Origin: a virus
Taxonomy: Duplodnaviria > Heunggongvirae > Uroviricota > Caudoviricetes
Reading direction: 5' to 3' (one strand)
Length of the DNA: 7,226 bases
IMG/VR virus record: IMGVR_UViG_2579778842_000006
Coordinates: 1 to 7,226 of that record
Shown here in pieces: positions 1 to 7,226 of the stretch. The notes beneath the pieces are model-generated. The model did not search any database. It was given only the letters and a program-made list of their open reading frames with translations, and was not told where the DNA came from. Both the position numbers and the translations under genes were made by a program. Numbering within the stretch: the first letter of the stretch is position 1; each line of letters begins with the position of its first letter.

Positions 1-232
1 AACCATAAGGCACTAACAGCCAGTGCGCCTGAAGGAAATGCAATAGGGAAATTACCTGTAGTTCCGTTAGTGTCCGCCCCATAAACATTCATCGAAAACA
101 TTTGGACAATATGACCACTTGGTAACTGAAACCAGTTTTTGCCAGATGGAAATGCAGACATATCTGGTATCTGATTTTCCCCTGTTCCCACGTTCCGTTT
201 TGCCGCTTCTCCCAAACCAACGTTTTTATGCA
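1..232 (-). CDS. Tail-fibre variable C-terminal cassette B, partial: runs off the left edge, has no start codon of its own, begins at crossover site 2
   Basis: Minus-strand frame open from 236 to position 1, with TGA at 239..237 just upstream. By hand translation it reads HKNVGLGEAAKRNVGTGENQIPDMSAFPSGKNWFQLPSGHIVQMFSMNVYGADTNGTTGNFPIAFPSGALAVSALW. The first residues (KNVGLGE) are encoded by the 26-bp crossover site, as in cassette A. First in-frame ATG is only at 161..159 and has no Shine-Dalgarno. Not in the supplied ORF track because it is open-ended. Confidence 0.45.
207..232. other. Hin/Gin/Cin/Pin-family crossover site 2 (TTCTCCCAAACC-AA-CGTTTTTATGCA), same orientation as site 1
   Basis: 26 bp with 12-bp half-sites flanking an AA core; the left half-site ends in the AAACC motif typical of hix/gix/cix sites (recalled from memory). 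Identical to site 1 at 21 of 26 positions, including an 18-bp perfect block (211..228 = 688..705). Overlaps the stop codon of cassette A and encodes the first residues of cassette B. Confidence 0.6.
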
Positions 233-744
233 GCTCTCACAATAAAGTTGAATGCAATATTGCGCGGTCGTGTTTCGCTCCCGCCTGTGTTACCAATACT
301 CCCTCGTGTATGTAGCGTTGGTGATGGAATCAGGGTTCCGCCTGCACTGGTACCATCCAGTCCCTTGCCCTGTGTATATGCTCTTCTGAAGATTGCCGCC
401 AGTTCCCATTCCTCTTTTGAGTCATACCCATCGTTGGCGACAACAGGATGACGGTGCTTTTCCAGCATTCCGGCCTGAATACTCAATAAAACACGTCCAG
501 CATCAATACCGCGCCCATCATCCCAGCCACGAATAAATTCACCGCGTAAATCAGGCAGTTTTCCTGACGGGTACGCTGTGGCTAGTTTGGGATACTTCAG
601 CTTATCAAAGGCAGCACCATTGCATTTTAGCCAGCCCTCTGGAGGTGTGGCTGAAGGCCACGGAACTGTTACACCAACAGGCAACGCAGAACCTTCCCCC
701 AAACCAACGTTTTTAACTTCGAAAACAGAGCTATCTAATAGCAT
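226..744 (-). CDS. Tail-fibre variable C-terminal cassette A (Mu S / P1 S / e14 StfE-type receptor-binding domain); the functional cassette probably begins at crossover site 1 rather than at the ATG
   Basis: 172-aa ORF. Contains VPWPSATPPEGWLKCNGAAFDKLKYPKLATAYPSGKLPDLRGEF and ends NIAFNFIVRAA, matching the conserved C-terminus of Mu/P1/e14-type tail-fibre variable domains (recalled from memory). No Shine-Dalgarno before the ATG at 744 (minus-strand upstream sequence GTTTCTGTTAGTAAAA); in-frame stop at 774..772. The N-terminal KNVGLGEG is encoded by the crossover site. Confidence 0.75.
   Translation of the reverse strand: MLLDSSVFEVKNVGLGEGSALPVGVTVPWPSATPPEGWLKCNGAAFDKLKYPKLATAYPSGKLPDLRGEFIRGWDDGRGIDAGRVLLSIQAGMLEKHRHPVVANDGYDSKEEWELAAIFRRAYTQGKGLDGTSAGGTLIPSPTLHTRGSIGNTGGSETRPRNIAFNFIVRAA
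684..709. other. Hin/Gin/Cin/Pin-family crossover site 1 (TTCCCCCAAACC-AA-CGTTTTTAACTT), invertase-proximal
   Basis: 26 bp with AAACC-AA-CGTTT centre; lies 64 bp upstream of the invertase start and within the 5' end of minus-strand cassette A. This is the position gixR occupies relative to gin and Sv' in phage Mu (established knowledge). Confidence 0.6.
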
Positions 745-772
745 TTTTACTAACAGAAACAGGATGCTTTTT

Positions 773-1372
773 ATGCAAATTGGCTATATTCGCGTATCAA
801 CAAATGACCAGAACACGGATTTGCAACGCAATGCGCTCAATAGCGCAGGATGTGAACTGATTTTTGAAGATAAAATCAGCGGAACAAAATCAGCCAGACC
901 GGGATTGAAAAAACTGCTCAGAACGTTATCAGCGGGGGATACGCTCGTTGTCTGGAAACTGGACAGGCTGGGCAGAAGCATGAAACACCTGATCACACTG
1001 ATTGAGGAATTGCGGAAAAAAGGTGTCAATTTTCGTAGTCTGACGGATTCAATTGATACCAGTACCCCAATGGGACGATTTTTCTTCCACGTGATGGGCG
1101 CCCTGGCTGAAATGGAACGTGAATTAATTGTAGAGCGTACACTGGCCGGACTGGCAGCAGCCCGCGCACAGGGGCGAATTGGTGGGCGTCGCCCGAAACT
1201 GACAAAAGAGCAACATGAGCAAATAGCGAGGCTGATTAAAAACGGCCACGACAGAAAACAGCTGGCCATAATTTACGACATCGGTATATCGACGATTTAT
1301 CGTTATCACCCTGTAGGTGACACGCAACCCGGAGGAATAATTGAGAATACTCAGGAAACAAAAAACCGCTAA
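773..1372 (+). CDS. pin: Serine DNA invertase, Hin/Gin/Cin/Pin family (small serine recombinase with C-terminal HTH)
   Basis: Translation from ATG 773 begins MQIGYIRVSTNDQNTDLQRNAL, with the catalytic Ser in the YIRVSTNDQ motif, then GDTLVVWKLDRLGRS and SLTDSIDTSTPMGRFFFHVMGALAEMERELIVERT, all hallmark invertase blocks. AGGA Shine-Dalgarno at 761..764. About 199 aa, typical size. The supplied ORF (578..1372) starts too far upstream; ATG 764 is an alternative start. Confidence 0.93.
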   Translation: MQIGYIRVSTNDQNTDLQRNALNSAGCELIFEDKISGTKSARPGLKKLLRTLSAGDTLVVWKLDRLGRSMKHLITLIEELRKKGVNFRSLTDSIDTSTPMGRFFFHVMGALAEMERELIVERTLAGLAAARAQGRIGGRRPKLTKEQHEQIARLIKNGHDRKQLAIIYDIGISTIYRYHPVGDTQPGGIIENTQETKNR

Positions 1373-1392
1373 TCTGAACATTAGCGGTTTTT
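1362..1392. terminator. Bidirectional rho-independent terminator between convergent invertase and U
   Basis: Perfect inverted repeat AAAACCGCTAAT (1362..1373) / ATTAGCGGTTTT (1380..1391) around a 6-nt loop CTGAAC. Followed by a T-run on the plus strand (1388..1392) and by TTTTTTGTTT on the minus strand (complement of 1356..1365). Includes the invertase stop codon and lies 10 nt past the U stop. Confidence 0.75.
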
Positions 1393-1400
1393 ACGTTAAA

Positions 1401-1889
1401 TCAGAACACCCCTTTAACTGAGCTGACCACATTGTTAAGGGATGATGTCACCTTATCTTTAAGACCGGACAGCATATCACTGAACGATGAGGATTGCAGG
1501 CGCTCCCGCAAATCCTCATCACAGCGTTCAAGGGTCAGGGAAAACTCTATCTTTTTCGCTTTCCCGTAGCGATCCAGTTCAGAGCGGGTCGTGCTCGTTT
1601 CAGTCAGAACATACATGCCGTAAATCTGCCCGACGCCATCAATCAGAGGCCACGGGCGTCCCGCATACGCCTGCGTGGCCAGCAGCGACAGCGACACTTC
1701 GCCGCCTGTAATCTCAGGATAAAGCACGCCGGAAAGAACGATGCGATCATCACCTGCACCGATATACTGCCAGCTTGCTGAACGGTTAACGCGCTCGTTT
1801 TTCACATGTCGCCAGCTTTTGTTTTGCTGTAACTGCTGATGCGGTAATGTGCGCAACTCAAAAACAAACATGCCGTAGATCATCATCAT
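1401..1889 (-). CDS. U: Tail protein U (P2 gpU family)
   Basis: 162 aa starting MMMIYGMFVFELRTLPHQQLQ, reminiscent of the P2 gpU N-terminus as I recall it; size matches. AAGGAG Shine-Dalgarno overlaps the stop codon of the upstream tape-measure gene. Confidence 0.85.
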   Translation of the reverse strand: MMMIYGMFVFELRTLPHQQLQQNKSWRHVKNERVNRSASWQYIGAGDDRIVLSGVLYPEITGGEVSLSLLATQAYAGRPWPLIDGVGQIYGMYVLTETSTTRSELDRYGKAKKIEFSLTLERCDEDLRERLQSSSFSDMLSGLKDKVTSSLNNVVSSVKGVF

Positions 1890-1900
1890 GGCACGACTCC

Positions 1901-4738
1901 TTACTCTTTATCATAAAAGCTACCACGCCCGGCACGGGTACGCCGCTCCAGTTCTGCCCTGACCATTTCGCCGACCAGTTTCGCCAGTTCGCGGGGATTC
2001 TGCGTAACAACGTTATGCAGATGGACATGAATTTCACCACCAAATTCGGGTGCCGCAGTCTCCCGGCTGCGGGAAGATGCGGAAACGGGCGCAACTGGCG
2101 CACGTGCGGCCTCCACGACCGGACGGGAGCTTGCTGCAACAACAGGGGGCAACACCGGAGATAACGGAGCCGGGACCACGGGTGTGATGTTGATTGCGGA
2201 AGCAGGCTTACTGACCTGCGCAATCTTCCGCTCCTGCCACTCCCCGCGAACAGCAAGCGCACGGGGCAGGTTCTTAAAGACAATATCACCGGGGCCGATA
2301 CGCTTTTTCGTCTCATCAACCAGCTTGCCTGTGTTATCTGCAATTTTGCTGAGCCTGCGCAGCGTGCCAGTGTTGTTGTCCGTGAGCGGCTTGTTGTCTT
2401 TAGGCTTATCGCCTCCGGTCCCTGTTTCCGCAGATTTCGGCGGATTGATTTTTGCCAGGTCCCCCTGAAGCAAAGCAACCTTGTCCTGAAGAATGGCCGC
2501 ACGCTGCGCGTCTTCGATTTTCTTTCTCGCCCTTTCCGCTTCATCTGGAAGGACGCCAAGTTTTTCCAGTATCCATGCCAGCGTATCCAGCAGCATTTTT
2601 GCAGGCGTCAGGACAAGCTGTAACGCACCGCCAAGAACGTTGCCGAACACCTCGCCAGCACTGGTGCATTTATCCAGCGTTTCCTTACTGGATTCCATCG
2701 GTGACAGCAGCGATGTAAACCAGTTAAAGACCTGAATCACGCCATCACGAACTAGTTCGAAAACAGGGCCAAACCGTTCAAAGGTTTCGCGTAACGGGGC
2801 CAGCCGCTCCATAATCCCGCTGAACACCCCGGCAAAAAATGCCCTGATTGGGTCCCAGTATTTCCAGATGAGAGCGGCAGCTCCGGCAAGCGCAGCCACG
2901 ATAAGACCGACCGGGCTGAACAACGCCCCGATAGCGCCTCCAAGTAAAGAGACGGAACCCGCCACCATTCCCCACAGCGCTGGCAGGACCCTGACAGCAT
3001 TCATTGATCCGGTCAGGAGGGAAAAACCAAGACGCAGTTTTGCCAGCGGGCCAGCAAGCACCCCAAGAGCCAGTGACAACGAGCCAACCGTTGCAGTCAT
3101 TGCCAGCAGCGCACCGCCTGCAATCAGTAGCTGGCGCGTCAGTGCCGGATGGGCCTGCGCCAGCTCCGTCACCTTTGAGACCACCCGAGTGAGCCACTGC
3201 GTGACAGAGCGCAGCGGACCGTCAATCAGATCCGCAATGCGGATACGCAGCCCCTCCCATGCACTGCCGAGTGATCTCAGGTCGCCATCAAGGTTATTGG
3301 CCATAACCTTTGCCGTGCGTTCAGCCTCACCGCGTGCGCCTTCAAGTTCTTTTCTCAGCTTGGGCAGAGAACCGTCACCTGCCGCATCAACGAGGGCCAT
3401 AAATGACGTGAAGGCCTCTTCTCCGGCTATGTCCTTAAAGAACGATACCCGGTCAACTTCCCCGTATTTGCGGGTGGCTTTATAAAGGTCGGCCAGCACA
3501 TCCTCCATCGGGCGCATTTTGCCGTTCGCATCAGAGACAGCCACACCAAGCTCTTTCAGCGCCTCTGCTGCCGCCTTTGGCGGTGATGCCAGACGAGCAA
3601 GGCTGGCACGCATTGCCGTCCCGGCATCACTCCCTCTGATACCCATATTCGCCAGCACGCCCGCCATCGCTGCGGCCTGCTCCAGCGATATTCCCAGCTT
3701 ACCCGCCACCGGACCTGCATATTTCATGGTTTCGCCCAGCGCGCGAAGGTCGGTGTTAGTACGGGTAAACGCCGCAGTAAGTGTGTCGCCGACCCGGTCC
3801 ATCTGGTCAGCAGAGAGACCGAACTGCGTCAGGATATTTGAGCCAATATCCGCCGTCTCGCCAAGGTCCATACCGCCAGCCGTTGCCATGCTCAGCACGC
3901 CGGGAAGCGCAGCCTGAATGGCTTCTGGTGTGAAGCCAGCCATAGCAAGAAATGCCTGCCCACTGGCGGCATCACTCGCAGTAAACTGCGTTTCAGAGCC
4001 GAGCTTTAGCGCCTGCTCACGCAGCGCCTTAAACTGCGGGCTGTTCTGGTCAATTCGCGTCAGCGCCTGCACACGGGACATCTCTTTCCCGAATCCGATA
4101 GCGGGCTGCAAAAAACGCCCGGCAGCATAGCCGCCAGCCGCTGCCGCACCAGTTGCCAGCGCACCACCCGTTTTCAGTTTTCCCGCTGTTTCCTGCGCGC
4201 GTGAATACTGCTCACGCGCCCGCGTTACACGCGCAAGCGCCTGTCGTTCGCGTTCAAGCTGGTTGTTGTACTGTTCGGTGCGTCTGATGGCCTGCTGGAT
4301 GGTGTTATCGCTGCCTGTCAGGGAAATACCGTGGCGTTTAAGCTCTCCGCCAAGCTCCCGCATTTTCTGAATTTCCCGCGTGCGCGATTCATTCAGGCGT
4401 TCAAGCCGGGTGCTTAACTGCTGCATCAGCCTTTGTTGTTTTTCGCTGAGCACAGTACCCGTGCGTTGTAACTGATGAAGGGCGTTAAGCTGGCGTCGTG
4501 CTTTCACGATGCCAGCATCCGCTTTACTGACAGCATCGCGGGCGCGCTCAAATGAACGCGCCTGACGCTCGAGATTTTTGATTGCCCCCTGCGTTTGCTG
4601 GATGGAGTCACCAAGCCGCCCCATCAGGCGGCGGGCGTTTTCGGCTGGCCGGGTCAGCCTGTCAACAGCACTGAAGGCGACCCGAATGTCAAGAGTCTTC
4701 ATTGTCTGCATTCCCACTGCGAAGTGCCGCCCGCTCAC
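1901..4738 (-). CDS. T: Tail tape-measure protein (P2 gpT-like); start codon uncertain
   Basis: About 945 aa, Ala/Leu/Gly/Arg-rich with coiled-coil-like segments and hydrophobic Gly/Ala-rich stretches. Sits between the E/E' chaperone pair and U as in P2. The ORF-track start at 4738 is a GTG; in-frame ATGs at 4711 and 4702 are alternatives. Confidence 0.88.
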   Translation of the reverse strand: MSGRHFAVGMQTMKTLDIRVAFSAVDRLTRPAENARRLMGRLGDSIQQTQGAIKNLERQARSFERARDAVSKADAGIVKARRQLNALHQLQRTGTVLSEKQQRLMQQLSTRLERLNESRTREIQKMRELGGELKRHGISLTGSDNTIQQAIRRTEQYNNQLERERQALARVTRAREQYSRAQETAGKLKTGGALATGAAAAGGYAAGRFLQPAIGFGKEMSRVQALTRIDQNSPQFKALREQALKLGSETQFTASDAASGQAFLAMAGFTPEAIQAALPGVLSMATAGGMDLGETADIGSNILTQFGLSADQMDRVGDTLTAAFTRTNTDLRALGETMKYAGPVAGKLGISLEQAAAMAGVLANMGIRGSDAGTAMRASLARLASPPKAAAEALKELGVAVSDANGKMRPMEDVLADLYKATRKYGEVDRVSFFKDIAGEEAFTSFMALVDAAGDGSLPKLRKELEGARGEAERTAKVMANNLDGDLRSLGSAWEGLRIRIADLIDGPLRSVTQWLTRVVSKVTELAQAHPALTRQLLIAGGALLAMTATVGSLSLALGVLAGPLAKLRLGFSLLTGSMNAVRVLPALWGMVAGSVSLLGGAIGALFSPVGLIVAALAGAAALIWKYWDPIRAFFAGVFSGIMERLAPLRETFERFGPVFELVRDGVIQVFNWFTSLLSPMESSKETLDKCTSAGEVFGNVLGGALQLVLTPAKMLLDTLAWILEKLGVLPDEAERARKKIEDAQRAAILQDKVALLQGDLAKINPPKSAETGTGGDKPKDNKPLTDNNTGTLRRLSKIADNTGKLVDETKKRIGPGDIVFKNLPRALAVRGEWQERKIAQVSKPASAINITPVVPAPLSPVLPPVVAASSRPVVEAARAPVAPVSASSRSRETAAPEFGGEIHVHLHNVVTQNPRELAKLVGEMVRAELERRTRAGRGSFYDKE

Positions 4739-5218
4739 GCCAGCTAACCACTTCGCCGGGCGTCATCATGAAGATTTCGGCGGGCGACCAGTTAAAAATA
4801 ACGGCAATATCTGCCACAAAGTCTTCTATGTGCTCAAAGCACACAACCGTGATCAGGCTTCCGTCGCCTGTTCGTTCTTCCCGCCAGAGTCCGCACCGCT
4901 CAAAAAATTTACGGCAACCACACATAACTGAATAAAGTCACGGGATGCCATTTTTTTGATCGTCACTTCATCCAGTCGCGGTGATGTCACGCGTGACAGC
5001 AGCGTAAACATGGATTCCGCTTTCAGATTCAGCACATCAGACAGCGACAAATCTCGCAGAGATCCAGCCTGCTCAATAGCCCCGGTGATCTCCACATACG
5101 TGATTTTTTCGCCGCCTCGCTCAATTGGTTGGGTAAGTTTTACGCCACGCTCACTGGTTTCTTTCACAGTGTCAGCAACTACCGTGTTTTCGGTATCGAT
5201 GTTTTTCGTCTCTTTCAT
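4689..5218 (-). CDS. E: Tail assembly chaperone fusion E+E', made by programmed -1 ribosomal frameshift at 4901..4907
   Basis: Zero-frame ORF 4853..5218 and -1-frame ORF 4689..4925 overlap at the heptamer T-TTT-TTG. The -1 frame continues to a stop at 4691..4689, overlapping the 5' end of T. Predicted fusion is about 176 aa. Confidence 0.7.
4853..5218 (-). CDS. E: Tail assembly chaperone E (P2 gpE family), zero-frame product
   Basis: 121 aa. AAAGGAG Shine-Dalgarno 7 nt before ATG 5218. Lies directly between the tube and tape-measure genes. Ends VVAVNFLSGADSGGKNEQATEA, with the slippery site in the NFL codons. Confidence 0.8.
   Translation of the reverse strand: MKETKNIDTENTVVADTVKETSERGVKLTQPIERGGEKITYVEITGAIEQAGSLRDLSLSDVLNLKAESMFTLLSRVTSPRLDEVTIKKMASRDFIQLCVVAVNFLSGADSGGKNEQATEA
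4901..4907 (-). other. Slippery heptamer T-TTT-TTG for programmed -1 frameshift (E to E')
   Basis: Plus strand reads CAAAAAA at 4901..4907. On the minus strand the zero-frame codons are AAT-TTT-TTG and the -1-frame codons are AAA-TTT-TTT-GAG. This is the classic X-XXY-YYZ arrangement; I recall the same heptamer for P2 E/E' and for lambda G/GT. Confidence 0.7.
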
Positions 5219-5272
5219 CAGGAAACTCCTTTCAGTCAGAGGCGACGCACTGCGCCGCCTGCATATTACTTA

Positions 5273-5785
5273 TCAGCCAAGCCCAAGCGCGGAACGGATA
5301 CGGTCAGGCACAATGTCCTTGCCGTCCTTCCGGTAGATGAAGTTCAGCAGGTCAATCTCCCACAACGGGCGATCGTTAACACTCAGCTTGTAGTAGGTGT
5401 TTTTAATGGCGTAAGTGTGTGATGTGGCTTCGCCCTGTTTGGCTTCCCCCATATCAATTTCCGTCACACGTCCGCGCATTTCGACTTCATACAGGTCGCT
5501 TTCTGCATCGGTGTAGTATTCACCCGCAAAACGCAGCAGCGTGCCGTCAATCGTGCCGCCATACTTAAGGAACAGCTCACGAACTGCGCCCCCCATGACA
5601 AAGCTCGCATCAAGCGCGGAGTCGTCCAGACCGAGATCAATACTTACCGCACCCATCATGCCGCCACCCCGGTAGCTGTCGGTTTTGCGCGTCAGCTTAG
5701 GCAGAGTGACGGACGTCACCTTACCCACTTCGTTTTCACCATCCACAAACAGCGTAAAAAAGCGAAGATGTTTTGGCACAGCCAT
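5273..5785 (-). CDS. FII: Major tail tube protein (P2 gpFII family)
   Basis: 170 aa, matching P2 FII in size and position immediately after the sheath gene. Its ATG (5785..5783) overlaps the sheath TGA stop by one nucleotide (TGATG), indicating translational coupling. Confidence 0.88.
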   Translation of the reverse strand: MAVPKHLRFFTLFVDGENEVGKVTSVTLPKLTRKTDSYRGGGMMGAVSIDLGLDDSALDASFVMGGAVRELFLKYGGTIDGTLLRFAGEYYTDAESDLYEVEMRGRVTEIDMGEAKQGEATSHTYAIKNTYYKLSVNDRPLWEIDLLNFIYRKDGKDIVPDRIRSALGLG

Positions 5786-6969
5786 CAGGCACCTCCCAGC
5801 ACCGCAAATGCGGGTTCAAAGTATTCATCAGTAAACGTCTGGTAAAGCTCCATGTCTTCCAGTGGCGGAACGGGCGTATATTTGTAGCGAATACGCACAC
5901 GCCCCTGACGTAAATCCGTGGTGCTGTTATCCACCACGTCATACCAGCACTCCGCGCCAATCAGTTTCCCGGCAGTCACCAGTGAATCCAGTTTTGCCCT
6001 GATGGCACTGATAACATCCTTCACGTTCGCAGGCGTCAGTGGACTGTCGATGGTTTCAAACTGCGCTTCCGCAATTGAATCAGCCAGCACCTGTGCGGTT
6101 CGGGTATACACCTCAAAGATGTAGGCGTTCGTTTCCGGTGTGCGGTTGCCCCAGAAGCGGAACCCGTTGCGACGAATAATGGTCGTGATTTCTTTGTTGT
6201 TGAGGCTGTTGGCATCACTGTCTTCGGCCTGTAATGACCAGAACACATGCCTCGACATCCCCAGCACATTTTTAACCGGAACGTTGGACAGTGATTTGTG
6301 CCACCCCTGCTCATGGTCAATGTACGCACGAAGGCCGCACGCATAGGCAGGCGCGGGGAACGTTTCGTTTTTGCCACTTTTCGGGTTGTAGGCGATGAAG
6401 TCCGGCCATAAGAGCATCACCTCACGTTCGTTGAATTTCTGGCGGTAGGTAATCGCCTCAGCCATCGTGTTACAGCCGTGACATGAGGCATACACAAACG
6501 CGCGCAGTTTACCTGCAATCACGCACAGGGATTTTGTTACTGCCTCCGTGTCCAGCTCCGGCGCTGCCAGAATACGCGGACGGTATCCGATGCTTTCATC
6601 CTGCTCTGCAACAAGCAGCGCATACATCCCCGTATAGCTGCCGTCAGATTCAGAACCACCGATAACCAGTTGATCCTGCGTTTTTCCGTCTTCTTCTTTG
6701 TGTTCAGCCACGCGAACGACGATCACCTTTGTGCTCACCTGGTCTGCGATGGCCTTAAGCGCACGATAAAGCGTTCCCGTTGTCCCGCATTTTCCCAGCA
6801 CGTCATTGACGCGGGTCAGCAGTGTGGGCTTGTTCAGCGGGAACAGCTTCGCGTCCGCATCATCCGCCGTTGCCACGATACCGATAACGCTGGAATCAAC
6901 ATCGTTAATCGCTGTTACCAGGTCGGTATTTTCCGTAACACGGGCACCATGAAAACGAGTTTCACTCAT
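5785..6969 (-). CDS. FI: Contractile tail sheath protein (P2 gpFI family)
   Basis: 394 aa. Contains FPLNKP, KLRAF, WPDF, EQGWHK.LSNV, RRNGFRFWGNRT, YTRTAQV and YKYTPVPPLE, blocks I recognise from P2-type sheath proteins. AAGGGG Shine-Dalgarno upstream of ATG 6969. Confidence 0.9.
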   Translation of the reverse strand: MSETRFHGARVTENTDLVTAINDVDSSVIGIVATADDADAKLFPLNKPTLLTRVNDVLGKCGTTGTLYRALKAIADQVSTKVIVVRVAEHKEEDGKTQDQLVIGGSESDGSYTGMYALLVAEQDESIGYRPRILAAPELDTEAVTKSLCVIAGKLRAFVYASCHGCNTMAEAITYRQKFNEREVMLLWPDFIAYNPKSGKNETFPAPAYACGLRAYIDHEQGWHKSLSNVPVKNVLGMSRHVFWSLQAEDSDANSLNNKEITTIIRRNGFRFWGNRTPETNAYIFEVYTRTAQVLADSIAEAQFETIDSPLTPANVKDVISAIRAKLDSLVTAGKLIGAECWYDVVDNSTTDLRQGRVRIRYKYTPVPPLEDMELYQTFTDEYFEPAFAVLGGA

Positions 6970-7126
6970 AGCTTCAGCCCCTTGTATCCGTTAAATGATT
7001 CGGCAACAATCATCACCCACCACGCGCGCAATCTCACCCCTGCGCCATTCTCCCGCCACGGCGACAACAAAAAGCAGTAACCCCCTCCGCACGCACATGC
7101 GACCATGCCACACAGGGAGGGAGCAG

Positions 7127-7226
7127 ATGACCGACACCACCATGCAATTGCTCAGTCAGGGCACAGACCCCGTGAAAATGCCGGATTTTGATATTCTCGC
7201 GGAGGGTAAAACGCTGTCAGGCGTGG
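7127..7226 (+). CDS. Divergent gene of unknown function, 5' end only (first 33 codons, runs off the right edge)
   Basis: ATG at 7127 preceded by GGGAGGGAG (7115..7123) at good spacing. Frame open to the window end (MTDTTMQLLSQGTDPVKMPDFDILAEGKTLSGV). All three minus-strand frames have stops between 7152 and 7219, so no minus-strand gene reads through here. Confidence 0.45.
   Translation, partial: MTDTTMQLLSQGTDPVKMPDFDILAEGKTLSGV

Follow-up and report, generated by a model that had tools for sequence, protein, structure and literature searches.

How many tail-fibre tips can be drawn upon when fibre cassettes stand in tandem beside a single invertase gene? The question is raised by the left end of a 7,226-nt stretch of viral DNA (the window; positions 1 to 7,226 of IMG/VR record IMGVR_UViG_2579778842_000006), which carries a serine DNA invertase gene, two crossover sites, and two minus-strand fibre-tip frames without start codons. 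An initial annotation, made from the sequence alone, deduced from the tandem cassettes a shufflon-like system with more than two host-range states, and this proposal held up: three sites were found, and a natural isomer uses both sites of the window. Our reading, to which we assign a probability of about 0.9 as a whole (sites, invertase, mechanism, three tips and four isomers), is that the window contains the invertase-proximal (right-hand) end of a multiple-inversion tail-fibre switch of a P2-like Escherichia coli prophage, in which three sites would generate four isomers and three fibre tips, designated Hv1, A and B.

Crossover sites, cassettes and invertase

Two complete E. coli chromosomes, ETEC4085 (locus L001; window position = L001 position - 9000) and OkiPb01713, match the first 2 kb of the window with 0 or 1 mismatch and extend it to the left. 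They have one P2-like prophage in common, which adjoins serS in ETEC4085. The fibre locus reads, on the plus strand, the constant part of fibre gene H, site L, Hv1, and chaperone gene Tfa1; then, on the minus strand, Tfa2, cassette B, site 2, cassette A, and site 1; and finally, on the plus strand, the invertase gene. The features on which the argument depends are as follows.

L001 6353-7852, plus strand: fibre gene H (gpH-type), 499 aa, with a Phage_tail_fib N-terminus and a Collar C-terminus
L001 7389-7414 (window -1611 to -1586), inverted relative to sites 1 and 2: site L, TTCTCGCATACC TT GGTTTGGGAGAA, inside the gpH-type gene, central TT at -1599/-1598
1-221, minus strand, cut by the window edge: cassette B, a startless Gp53-like_C tip (Pfam PF21882, E 9e-9)
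207-232, plus strand: crossover site 2, TTCTCCCAAACC AA CGTTTTTATGCA, central AA at 219-220
226-708 (stop included), minus strand: cassette A, a startless 160-aa Phage Tail Collar tip, VGLGEGSALPVG...NIAFNFIVRAA (Pfam PF07484, E 1e-14)
694-719, plus strand: crossover site 1, TTCCCCCAAACC AA CGTTTTTAACTT, central AA at 706-707; invertase-proximal end of the invertible region
773-1372, plus strand: serine DNA invertase gene of the Pin/Gin/Min ("Din") family, 199 aa, catalytic Ser9 in MQIGYIRVSTNDQ

The two sites of the window coincide with a 23-nt direct repeat (206-228 and 693-715; identity 22/23, spacing 487). Its 17-nt core, CCAAACCAACGTTTTTA, is present in exactly two copies in the window, both on the plus strand (0.01 expected; two matches in 0 of 200 shuffles), in agreement with the common orientation originally assigned to the sites. 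Once both were written in the Hin-family 12 + 2 + 12 format, the site at 207-232 and its junction at 219/220 proved to have been correctly placed in the initial annotation. The other site, put at 684-709, lies 10 nt further right, so that the gap to the ATG of the invertase gene (773) is 53 bp and not 64 bp, and exchange is expected at 706/707 rather than 696/697. The presence of a Pin/Gin-like invertase to the right of site 1 is unaffected by this correction.

The partner site and the constant fibre gene had been predicted to lie left of the window, and in both genomes an inverted site L was indeed found within the gpH-type gene, 1.6 kb to the left. A scan allowing up to 5 mismatches revealed no credible site in the locus beyond these three. 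All of them read TTCYCCCAAACC-AA-(C/G)GT..., with an AA/TT core, and their cassette-side half, TTCYCCCAAACC, codes for ..GLGE. They have the architecture of Din-family sites, 26 bp made of two imperfect inverted 12-bp half-sites around an identical 2-bp core, and, with L inverted relative to 2 and 1, they flank the invertible DNA beside the invertase gene. The outer half-sites belong to the end of H, to the end of the preceding cassette with its stop codon, or to the spacer before the invertase gene. In site 2, the left half codes for the start of B and the right half contains the stop codon of A (TAA, 228-226), indicating that the site is a linker joining the end of one cassette to the start of the next. 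This linker design is kept in every relative examined. Site 1 stands about 80 nt upstream of the invertase ATG, as its counterparts do in almost every related locus; the gix site of Mu, upstream of gin, also aligns at this position.

The minus-strand frames are open at both window sites in one register, ..K N V G L G E.., and site L codes for ..A Y L G L G E.. in that register, with a matching central dinucleotide, in frame with both window cassettes. The earlier statement that KNVGLGE heads both cassettes is therefore right as to the register, but "KNV", which comes from the outer half-sites, enters no fusion protein, since exchange at the central TT leaves ...A-Y-L-G-L-G-E. Inversion in silico at the central dinucleotides produced open, in-frame H-A and H-B fusions. 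The locus combines more than two crossover sites for one invertase, overlapping invertible segments, and in-frame sites that would make startless cassettes alternative C-termini of one N-terminus.

Complete cassette B (L001 8871-9221) encodes 116 aa from its first codon, GTT at 221-219, with the translation VGLGEAAKRNVGTGENQIPDM..., and is followed further left, beyond the window, by the chaperone gene Tfa2. A ends in NIAFNFIVRAA and B is unrelated to it, both as originally described; the profile search separates them as Collar and Gp53-like_C, respectively. The label "Mu/P1/e14-type" given to A stands for e14 (57% identity to the e14 StfE cassette); its Mu part was dropped, as neither A nor Hv1 resembles Mu S or S' at E<1e-3. 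The N-termini of A and Hv1 share 67 of 75 residues; B has only the 23-nt site in common with either.

The current RefSeq annotation offers another account of A and B, namely that they are small tail proteins translated independently. The Prokaryotic Genome Annotation Pipeline (PGAP) indeed calls a 172-aa "phage tail protein" for A, starting at the ATG at 744 (L001 9226-9744), and a 96-aa "gp53-like domain-containing protein" for B (L001 8871-9161). For A, this call adds the following feature.

709-744, minus strand: spurious stretch at the 5' end of the open reading frame (ORF) annotated as "phage tail protein", whose ATG is at 744; its codons come from the outer half of site 1 together with the spacer and occur in no fusion protein

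Against independent translation, the 31 nt upstream of ATG 744 contain no Shine-Dalgarno motif, in keeping with the initial claim that A has no ribosome-binding site of its own, and no promoter-like site was found there; the annotated start of B falls inside its domain; the crossover sites are exactly where the two frames open; these sequences recur elsewhere as C-termini of full-length H proteins; and PGAP marks the displaced Hv1 of strain ETEC1749 "missing N-terminus". A sigma-70 promoter scan of positions 1-1500 detected nothing, the invertase promoter included, and hence provides no support for separate cassette expression. Independent translation is, in our judgment, extremely unlikely. 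The free-standing RefSeq proteins WP_032165971.1 (from the spacer ATG; window 226-744) and WP_236294969.1 (from the domain-internal ATG; window 1-161) are likely annotation artefacts of startless cassettes.

The invertase contains Resolvase (PF00239, E 2e-51) and HTH_7 (PF02796, E 1.5e-12) domains, and its residues 1-181 align to the Gin crystal structures 4M6F and 3UJ3 (E 1e-88) with conservation of VSTNDQ. It is 81.5% identical to e14 PinE, 71% to Mu Gin, and 94% to the invertase of a P2-like prophage of enteropathogenic E. coli (EPEC). The protein is a small serine recombinase, with an N-terminal catalytic domain, its active-site serine at residue 9, and a C-terminal helix-turn-helix. The invertases of the window, EPEC, and EC-107 have 199 aa, ending in a 6- to 15-residue C-terminal tail (window 1315-1369) missing from PinE (184 aa), the PE144 enzyme (188 aa), and Gin (193 aa). 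Two further features lie at the two ends of the gene.

794-860, plus strand: putative Fis-binding recombinational enhancer, within the 5' end of the invertase gene
1361-1392: perfect 13-bp hairpin, AAAAACCGCTAAT/ATTAGCGGTTTTT, where the invertase and gpU genes converge

Within the first of these, 17 nt (TCAACAAATGACCAGAA, 797-813) are invariant, synonymous positions included, in six invertase genes, Mu gin among them, and GCAGGATG (845-852) is nearly so, with 7 of 8 positions conserved and variation at 847. Enhancers of this family usually lie in this 5' part of the gene, and such blocks would fit a Fis enhancer but do not prove one; Kahmann is said to have placed the Gin enhancer within the invertase gene in 1985. 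The hairpin is likely a bidirectional terminator, which would insulate the switch from the tail operon.

Predicted isomers and rearrangements among strains

The single Pin/Gin-type invertase would act on all three 26-bp sites, of which L is in one orientation and 2 and 1 are in the opposite one. By analogy with the family, enzyme dimers bound to two inverted sites would synapse, probably on an enhancer occupied by Fis within the 5' end of the gene for the invertase, cut the central AA/TT, rotate, and religate. Inversion between L and 2 would bring tip B (Gp53-like), with Tfa2 as its chaperone, into place behind H, and inversion between L and 1 would bring the Collar tip A there; one more inversion would leave H-A followed by silent Hv1 and Tfa1. 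The predicted isomers are as follows.

S0: H-Hv1
S1: H-B
S2: H-A, then B
S3: H-A, then Hv1

The window has the S0 arrangement, with Hv1 expressed and with B and A silent in tandem. The three tips presumably differ in receptor specificity. The sites and their reading frames, the partner site, two natural isomers, and one precise deletion form are observations; we infer activity of the switch in the strain from which the window derives, its dependence on Fis, the use of the chaperones, and an effect on host range. Tfa1 shares 90% identity with TfaE of e14, which partners the Collar-type StfE, and Tfa2 shares 53% identity with TfaP, which partners StfP. Cassette A probably uses Tfa1, because a single TfaE-like gene serves three Collar cassettes in the EPEC homologue.

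Isomer S3 was found in strains ETEC1749 and rl0044, in the order H, site, A, site, startless Hv1, and Tfa1, followed by Tfa2, B, site, and invertase gene. Two inversions of the ETEC4085 sequence in silico (L by 1, then middle by right) reproduced the ETEC1749 sequence with 1 mismatch in 3,300 bp, and this rearrangement requires exchange at both sites of the window. Position 4 of the cassette-side half-site is polymorphic (T/C), and the variant moves with its cassette into the hybrid sites. Since B shares the site alone with A and Hv1, the exchanges fell within the identical 17-nt core. In strain UMNK88, the same prophage occupies the same chromosomal locus, with flanks about 99.9% identical, but is shorter by exactly 487 bp, the missing DNA being cassette A, from the centre of site 2 to that of site 1. 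The residual site (L002, NC_017641.1, 9207-9232) is a hybrid of the left part of site 2 and the right part of site 1, and the event was either a precise loss of the cassette between directly repeated invertase sites or, in the reverse direction, its gain. In addition, the UMNK88 prophage is interrupted by IS3, and its H gene is frameshifted. Finally, the two-cassette relative PE144 expresses an intact H-B-type fusion followed by a Tfa2-type gene, with 95% nucleotide identity across the predicted junction. Comparison between strains indicates that the segment inverts, which has been shown within a culture for the EPEC homologue.

These observations bear on a simpler two-state switch of the e14 or Mu kind, in which only one of sites 1 and 2 would be active and A would be a decaying remnant that is never expressed. 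Two-site versions of the module do exist (UMNK88 and PE144), and two sites are the commonest class among related loci with enough flanking sequence (39 of 71). However, A is an intact 160-aa open frame joined in frame to H in ETEC1749 and rl0044, the ETEC4085/ETEC1749 rearrangement needs both window sites, and the EPEC orthologue of A belongs to a locus in which all four variants were detected. We therefore regard the two-state explanation as very unlikely. The same holds for the view that homologous recombination, dependent on RecA, acts between the 5' parts conserved among the Collar cassettes (about 225 nt), with the invertase playing no role. This alternative draws on the 67 of 75 residues shared by the N-termini of A and Hv1 and on the description of the EPEC repeats as 215 bp with 92% homology (PMC4272514). 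It would not explain how B, with nothing but the 23-nt site in common, still takes part in exchanges, nor why the hybrid sites of ETEC1749 and UMNK88 put the crossovers within the 17-nt identical core. In addition, the central dinucleotide and the site orientations follow the rules of invertases, and deletion of gin abolished rearrangement in phage FRφ (bioRxiv 10.1101/2025.07.22.666180).

Several points weigh against the three-site, four-isomer switch. Cassette A has no chaperone gene of its own, and Tfa1, which is of the TfaE type, would face the wrong way in S2, so that this isomer may be unproductive or less productive. The evidence for inversion is comparative, drawn from different strains, and ongoing inversion in the prophage of the window is presumptive. 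Near-identical copies of the module were found in the S0 and S3 states only, S1 and S2 being absent from 5,426 complete E. coli genomes. In these genomes, queries made of the H-B junction and of the junction placing Hv1 next to the invertase gene gave 91 to 95% matches in related two-cassette prophages only; a query made of the Hv1-A junction, which is common to S1 and S3, found ETEC1749 and rl0044 again and nothing else. Moreover, the left arm of ETEC1749 differs, the constant part of H being about 77% identical overall, so that the two isomers sit in recombinant prophages and not in one clone.

In ETEC1749 (L003 3901-4937 compared with L001 6353-7389), the module and right arm are essentially identical to those of ETEC4085, and the 1 kb at the N-terminal end of H, like the genes further left, shows only about 77 to 83% identity, which places a recombination boundary in or near the constant region of H. 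Many draft contigs (L012, L014, L016, L018, L020, L030, L097, L122, and others) stop 75 to 200 nt upstream of the invertase gene, at the proximal site, which suggests that assemblies break there through repeats or mixed orientations. We rejected these contig ends as proof of population heterogeneity, as inverted repeats alone break short-read assemblies.

The cassettes might be mobile as well as switchable, P2-like prophages trading fibre tips in an integron-like manner. Since tandem cassettes lie between directly repeated sites, the invertase or recombination through the short homology of the sites could excise a cassette and possibly re-insert it elsewhere. If true, this would explain the precise loss of 487 bp in UMNK88, the 84% identical copy of A in EPEC, and why closely related backbones bear arrays that range from 2 to 8 cassettes, but we consider such trade unlikely.

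Prophage backbone

The prophage is P2-like (Peduovirinae-type). RefSeq annotation of ETEC4085, OkiPb01713, and UMNK88 includes the P2 tail and baseplate set V, W, J, I, H, a G-type Tfa, FI, FII, E/E+E', T, U, D, and ogr. Baseplate genes V, W, J, and I lie to the left of H; to the right of the invertase gene are convergent gpU, tape measure, E/E', tube, and sheath genes. Pfam matched GpU to window 1401-1889 and Phage_tail_fib to the N-terminus of H. No Rfam family matched the window.

Window positions 1-4998 have at most 1 mismatch to ETEC4085 and OkiPb01713, and about 160 differences fall in the last 2.2 kb. This sharp mosaic boundary in gpE (at about 4999) indicates that the source of the window is a recombinant relative of the ETEC4085 and OkiPb01713 prophages. 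A TTTTTTG slippery heptamer (4901-4907, minus strand) within the gpE-like ORF (5218-4853), together with an overlapping ORF in the -1 frame (4925-4689), looks like the conserved P2 E/E+E' tail-chaperone frameshift. The FI-FII-E-T-U tail block (1401-6969) is inverted relative to the canonical P2 order, which is kept by PE144 (L004 7577-9810). The inverted block converges on the invertase gene, with gpD beyond it in the opposite direction (L005 13129 onward), and the EPEC and EC-107 prophages are arranged alike.

Comparison with known multi-cassette switches

The bacteria open to attack by a temperate phage, or by a tailocin descended from one, are set by fibre-tip switching, and switches with several cassettes broaden host-range bet-hedging. 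Annotation is affected in two ways: cassettes that lack a start are routinely taken for independent "phage tail protein" genes, and one reference assembly freezes one of several coexisting states. The locus of the window adds no new kind of biology, and the novelty implied by the initial annotation was not sustained: its mechanism, three-site four-isomer layout, and host-range effect have been described before in relatives both close and more remote, tail-fibre switches with several cassettes and a serine invertase are an established kind, and a near-identical three-site system of an E. coli P2-like prophage was tested in 2014 (PMC4272514). With this exception, every testable prediction of the initial annotation held, and none of the circumstances under which it would have given up the switch, such as a lack of an oppositely oriented site or of a constant fibre gene within several kb to the left, was encountered.

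In that study, Goldberg et al. described a P2-like prophage of EPEC E2348/69 that contains three repeats, undergoes two overlapping inversions, and has three alternative C-termini, and demonstrated its four variants using PCR and sequencing (PMC4272514). The EPEC locus (NC_011601.1 1891695-1893703) resembles that of the window in its backbone and in the order H, cassettes, Tfa, invertase gene, convergent gpU, and tape measure. Its three sites, TTCCCCCAAACCAA(C/G)GT, lie at the published boundaries and belong to one family with those of the window, and its tandem startless cassettes share one orientation, c2 among them being 84% identical to cassette A; both loci have four isomers and three C-termini. 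The EPEC locus has three Collar cassettes and one TfaE-like chaperone, whereas that of the window has two Collar cassettes, one Gp53-like cassette, and two chaperone genes. The reference states also differ, the tandem pair lying beside H in EPEC and beside the invertase gene in the window.

The P-segment/Pin system of e14 in E. coli K-12 has pix sites of the same family, TTCTCCCAAACCAAGGTTTTCGAGAG and TTCTCCCAAACCAACGTTTATGAAAA. Its StfE cassette is 54 to 57% identical to A and Hv1, and its StfP tip is distantly like B. This defective lambdoid element has two sites, two cassettes, and two states; compared with it, the locus of the window has an extra tandem StfE-type cassette without a chaperone gene of its own, in a P2-like prophage. 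The Min system of p15B, attributed to Sandmeier and colleagues (1990 and 1992), reportedly has one Din-family invertase acting on more than two sites in the tail-fibre coding sequence, with overlapping segments and many C-termini. It is said to have six sites, on a P1-related plasmid prophage, whereas the locus of the window has three, in a P2-like chromosomal prophage.

The R64 shufflon follows the same logic, multiple inversions swapping C-terminal cassettes onto a constant N-terminus, but does so with a tyrosine recombinase, Rci, that acts on sfx sites of 19 bp, and with an adhesin of the pilus (pilV). The sole recombinase of the window's locus is a protein of the serine resolvase/invertase family, so that the likeness to R64 is analogy and not membership, and we rejected assignment to the R64 type. 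Enterobacter phage FRφ has a three-isoform fibre shufflon with a gin-type recombinase downstream; deletion of gin locks its state, one isoform alone infects the host, and related loci hold up to six paralogues (bioRxiv 10.1101/2025.07.22.666180). It differs in phage and host, the likeness being one of layout (three C-termini and a downstream gin-type gene).

To place the locus among its relatives, sites were counted in 71 loci that encode a related invertase and have enough upstream flank, with the following result.

0 sites: 13 loci, most of them in genera further removed, whose site motif may be different
1 site: 10 loci
2 sites: 39 loci
3 sites: 4 loci
4, 5, and 6 sites: 1 locus each
8 sites: 2 loci

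In the multi-site loci examined (2 to 8 cassettes), every cassette was an intact Collar frame of 144 to 198 aa, running from its site to a stop within the next site. L115 (IMGVR_UViG_2534682158_000010), L117, L107, and L006 (EC-107) encode invertases with 92 to 95% identity and have 6 to 8 sites, each heading an intact Collar cassette; EC-107 has a single annotated chaperone gene, and the IMG/VR loci are without annotation. The 8 same-orientation sites of L117 are cut by the contig end, and the array may be longer. In this small survey, arrays of at least three sites occurred only with invertases at least 86% identical to that of the window (199-aa and approximately 185-aa forms), and loci with 81 to 85% identical enzymes had at most two sites. 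By these counts, the three-site locus of the window is a modest member of a common family, and its sole peculiarity is the mixture of Collar and Gp53-like tips with two chaperone genes.

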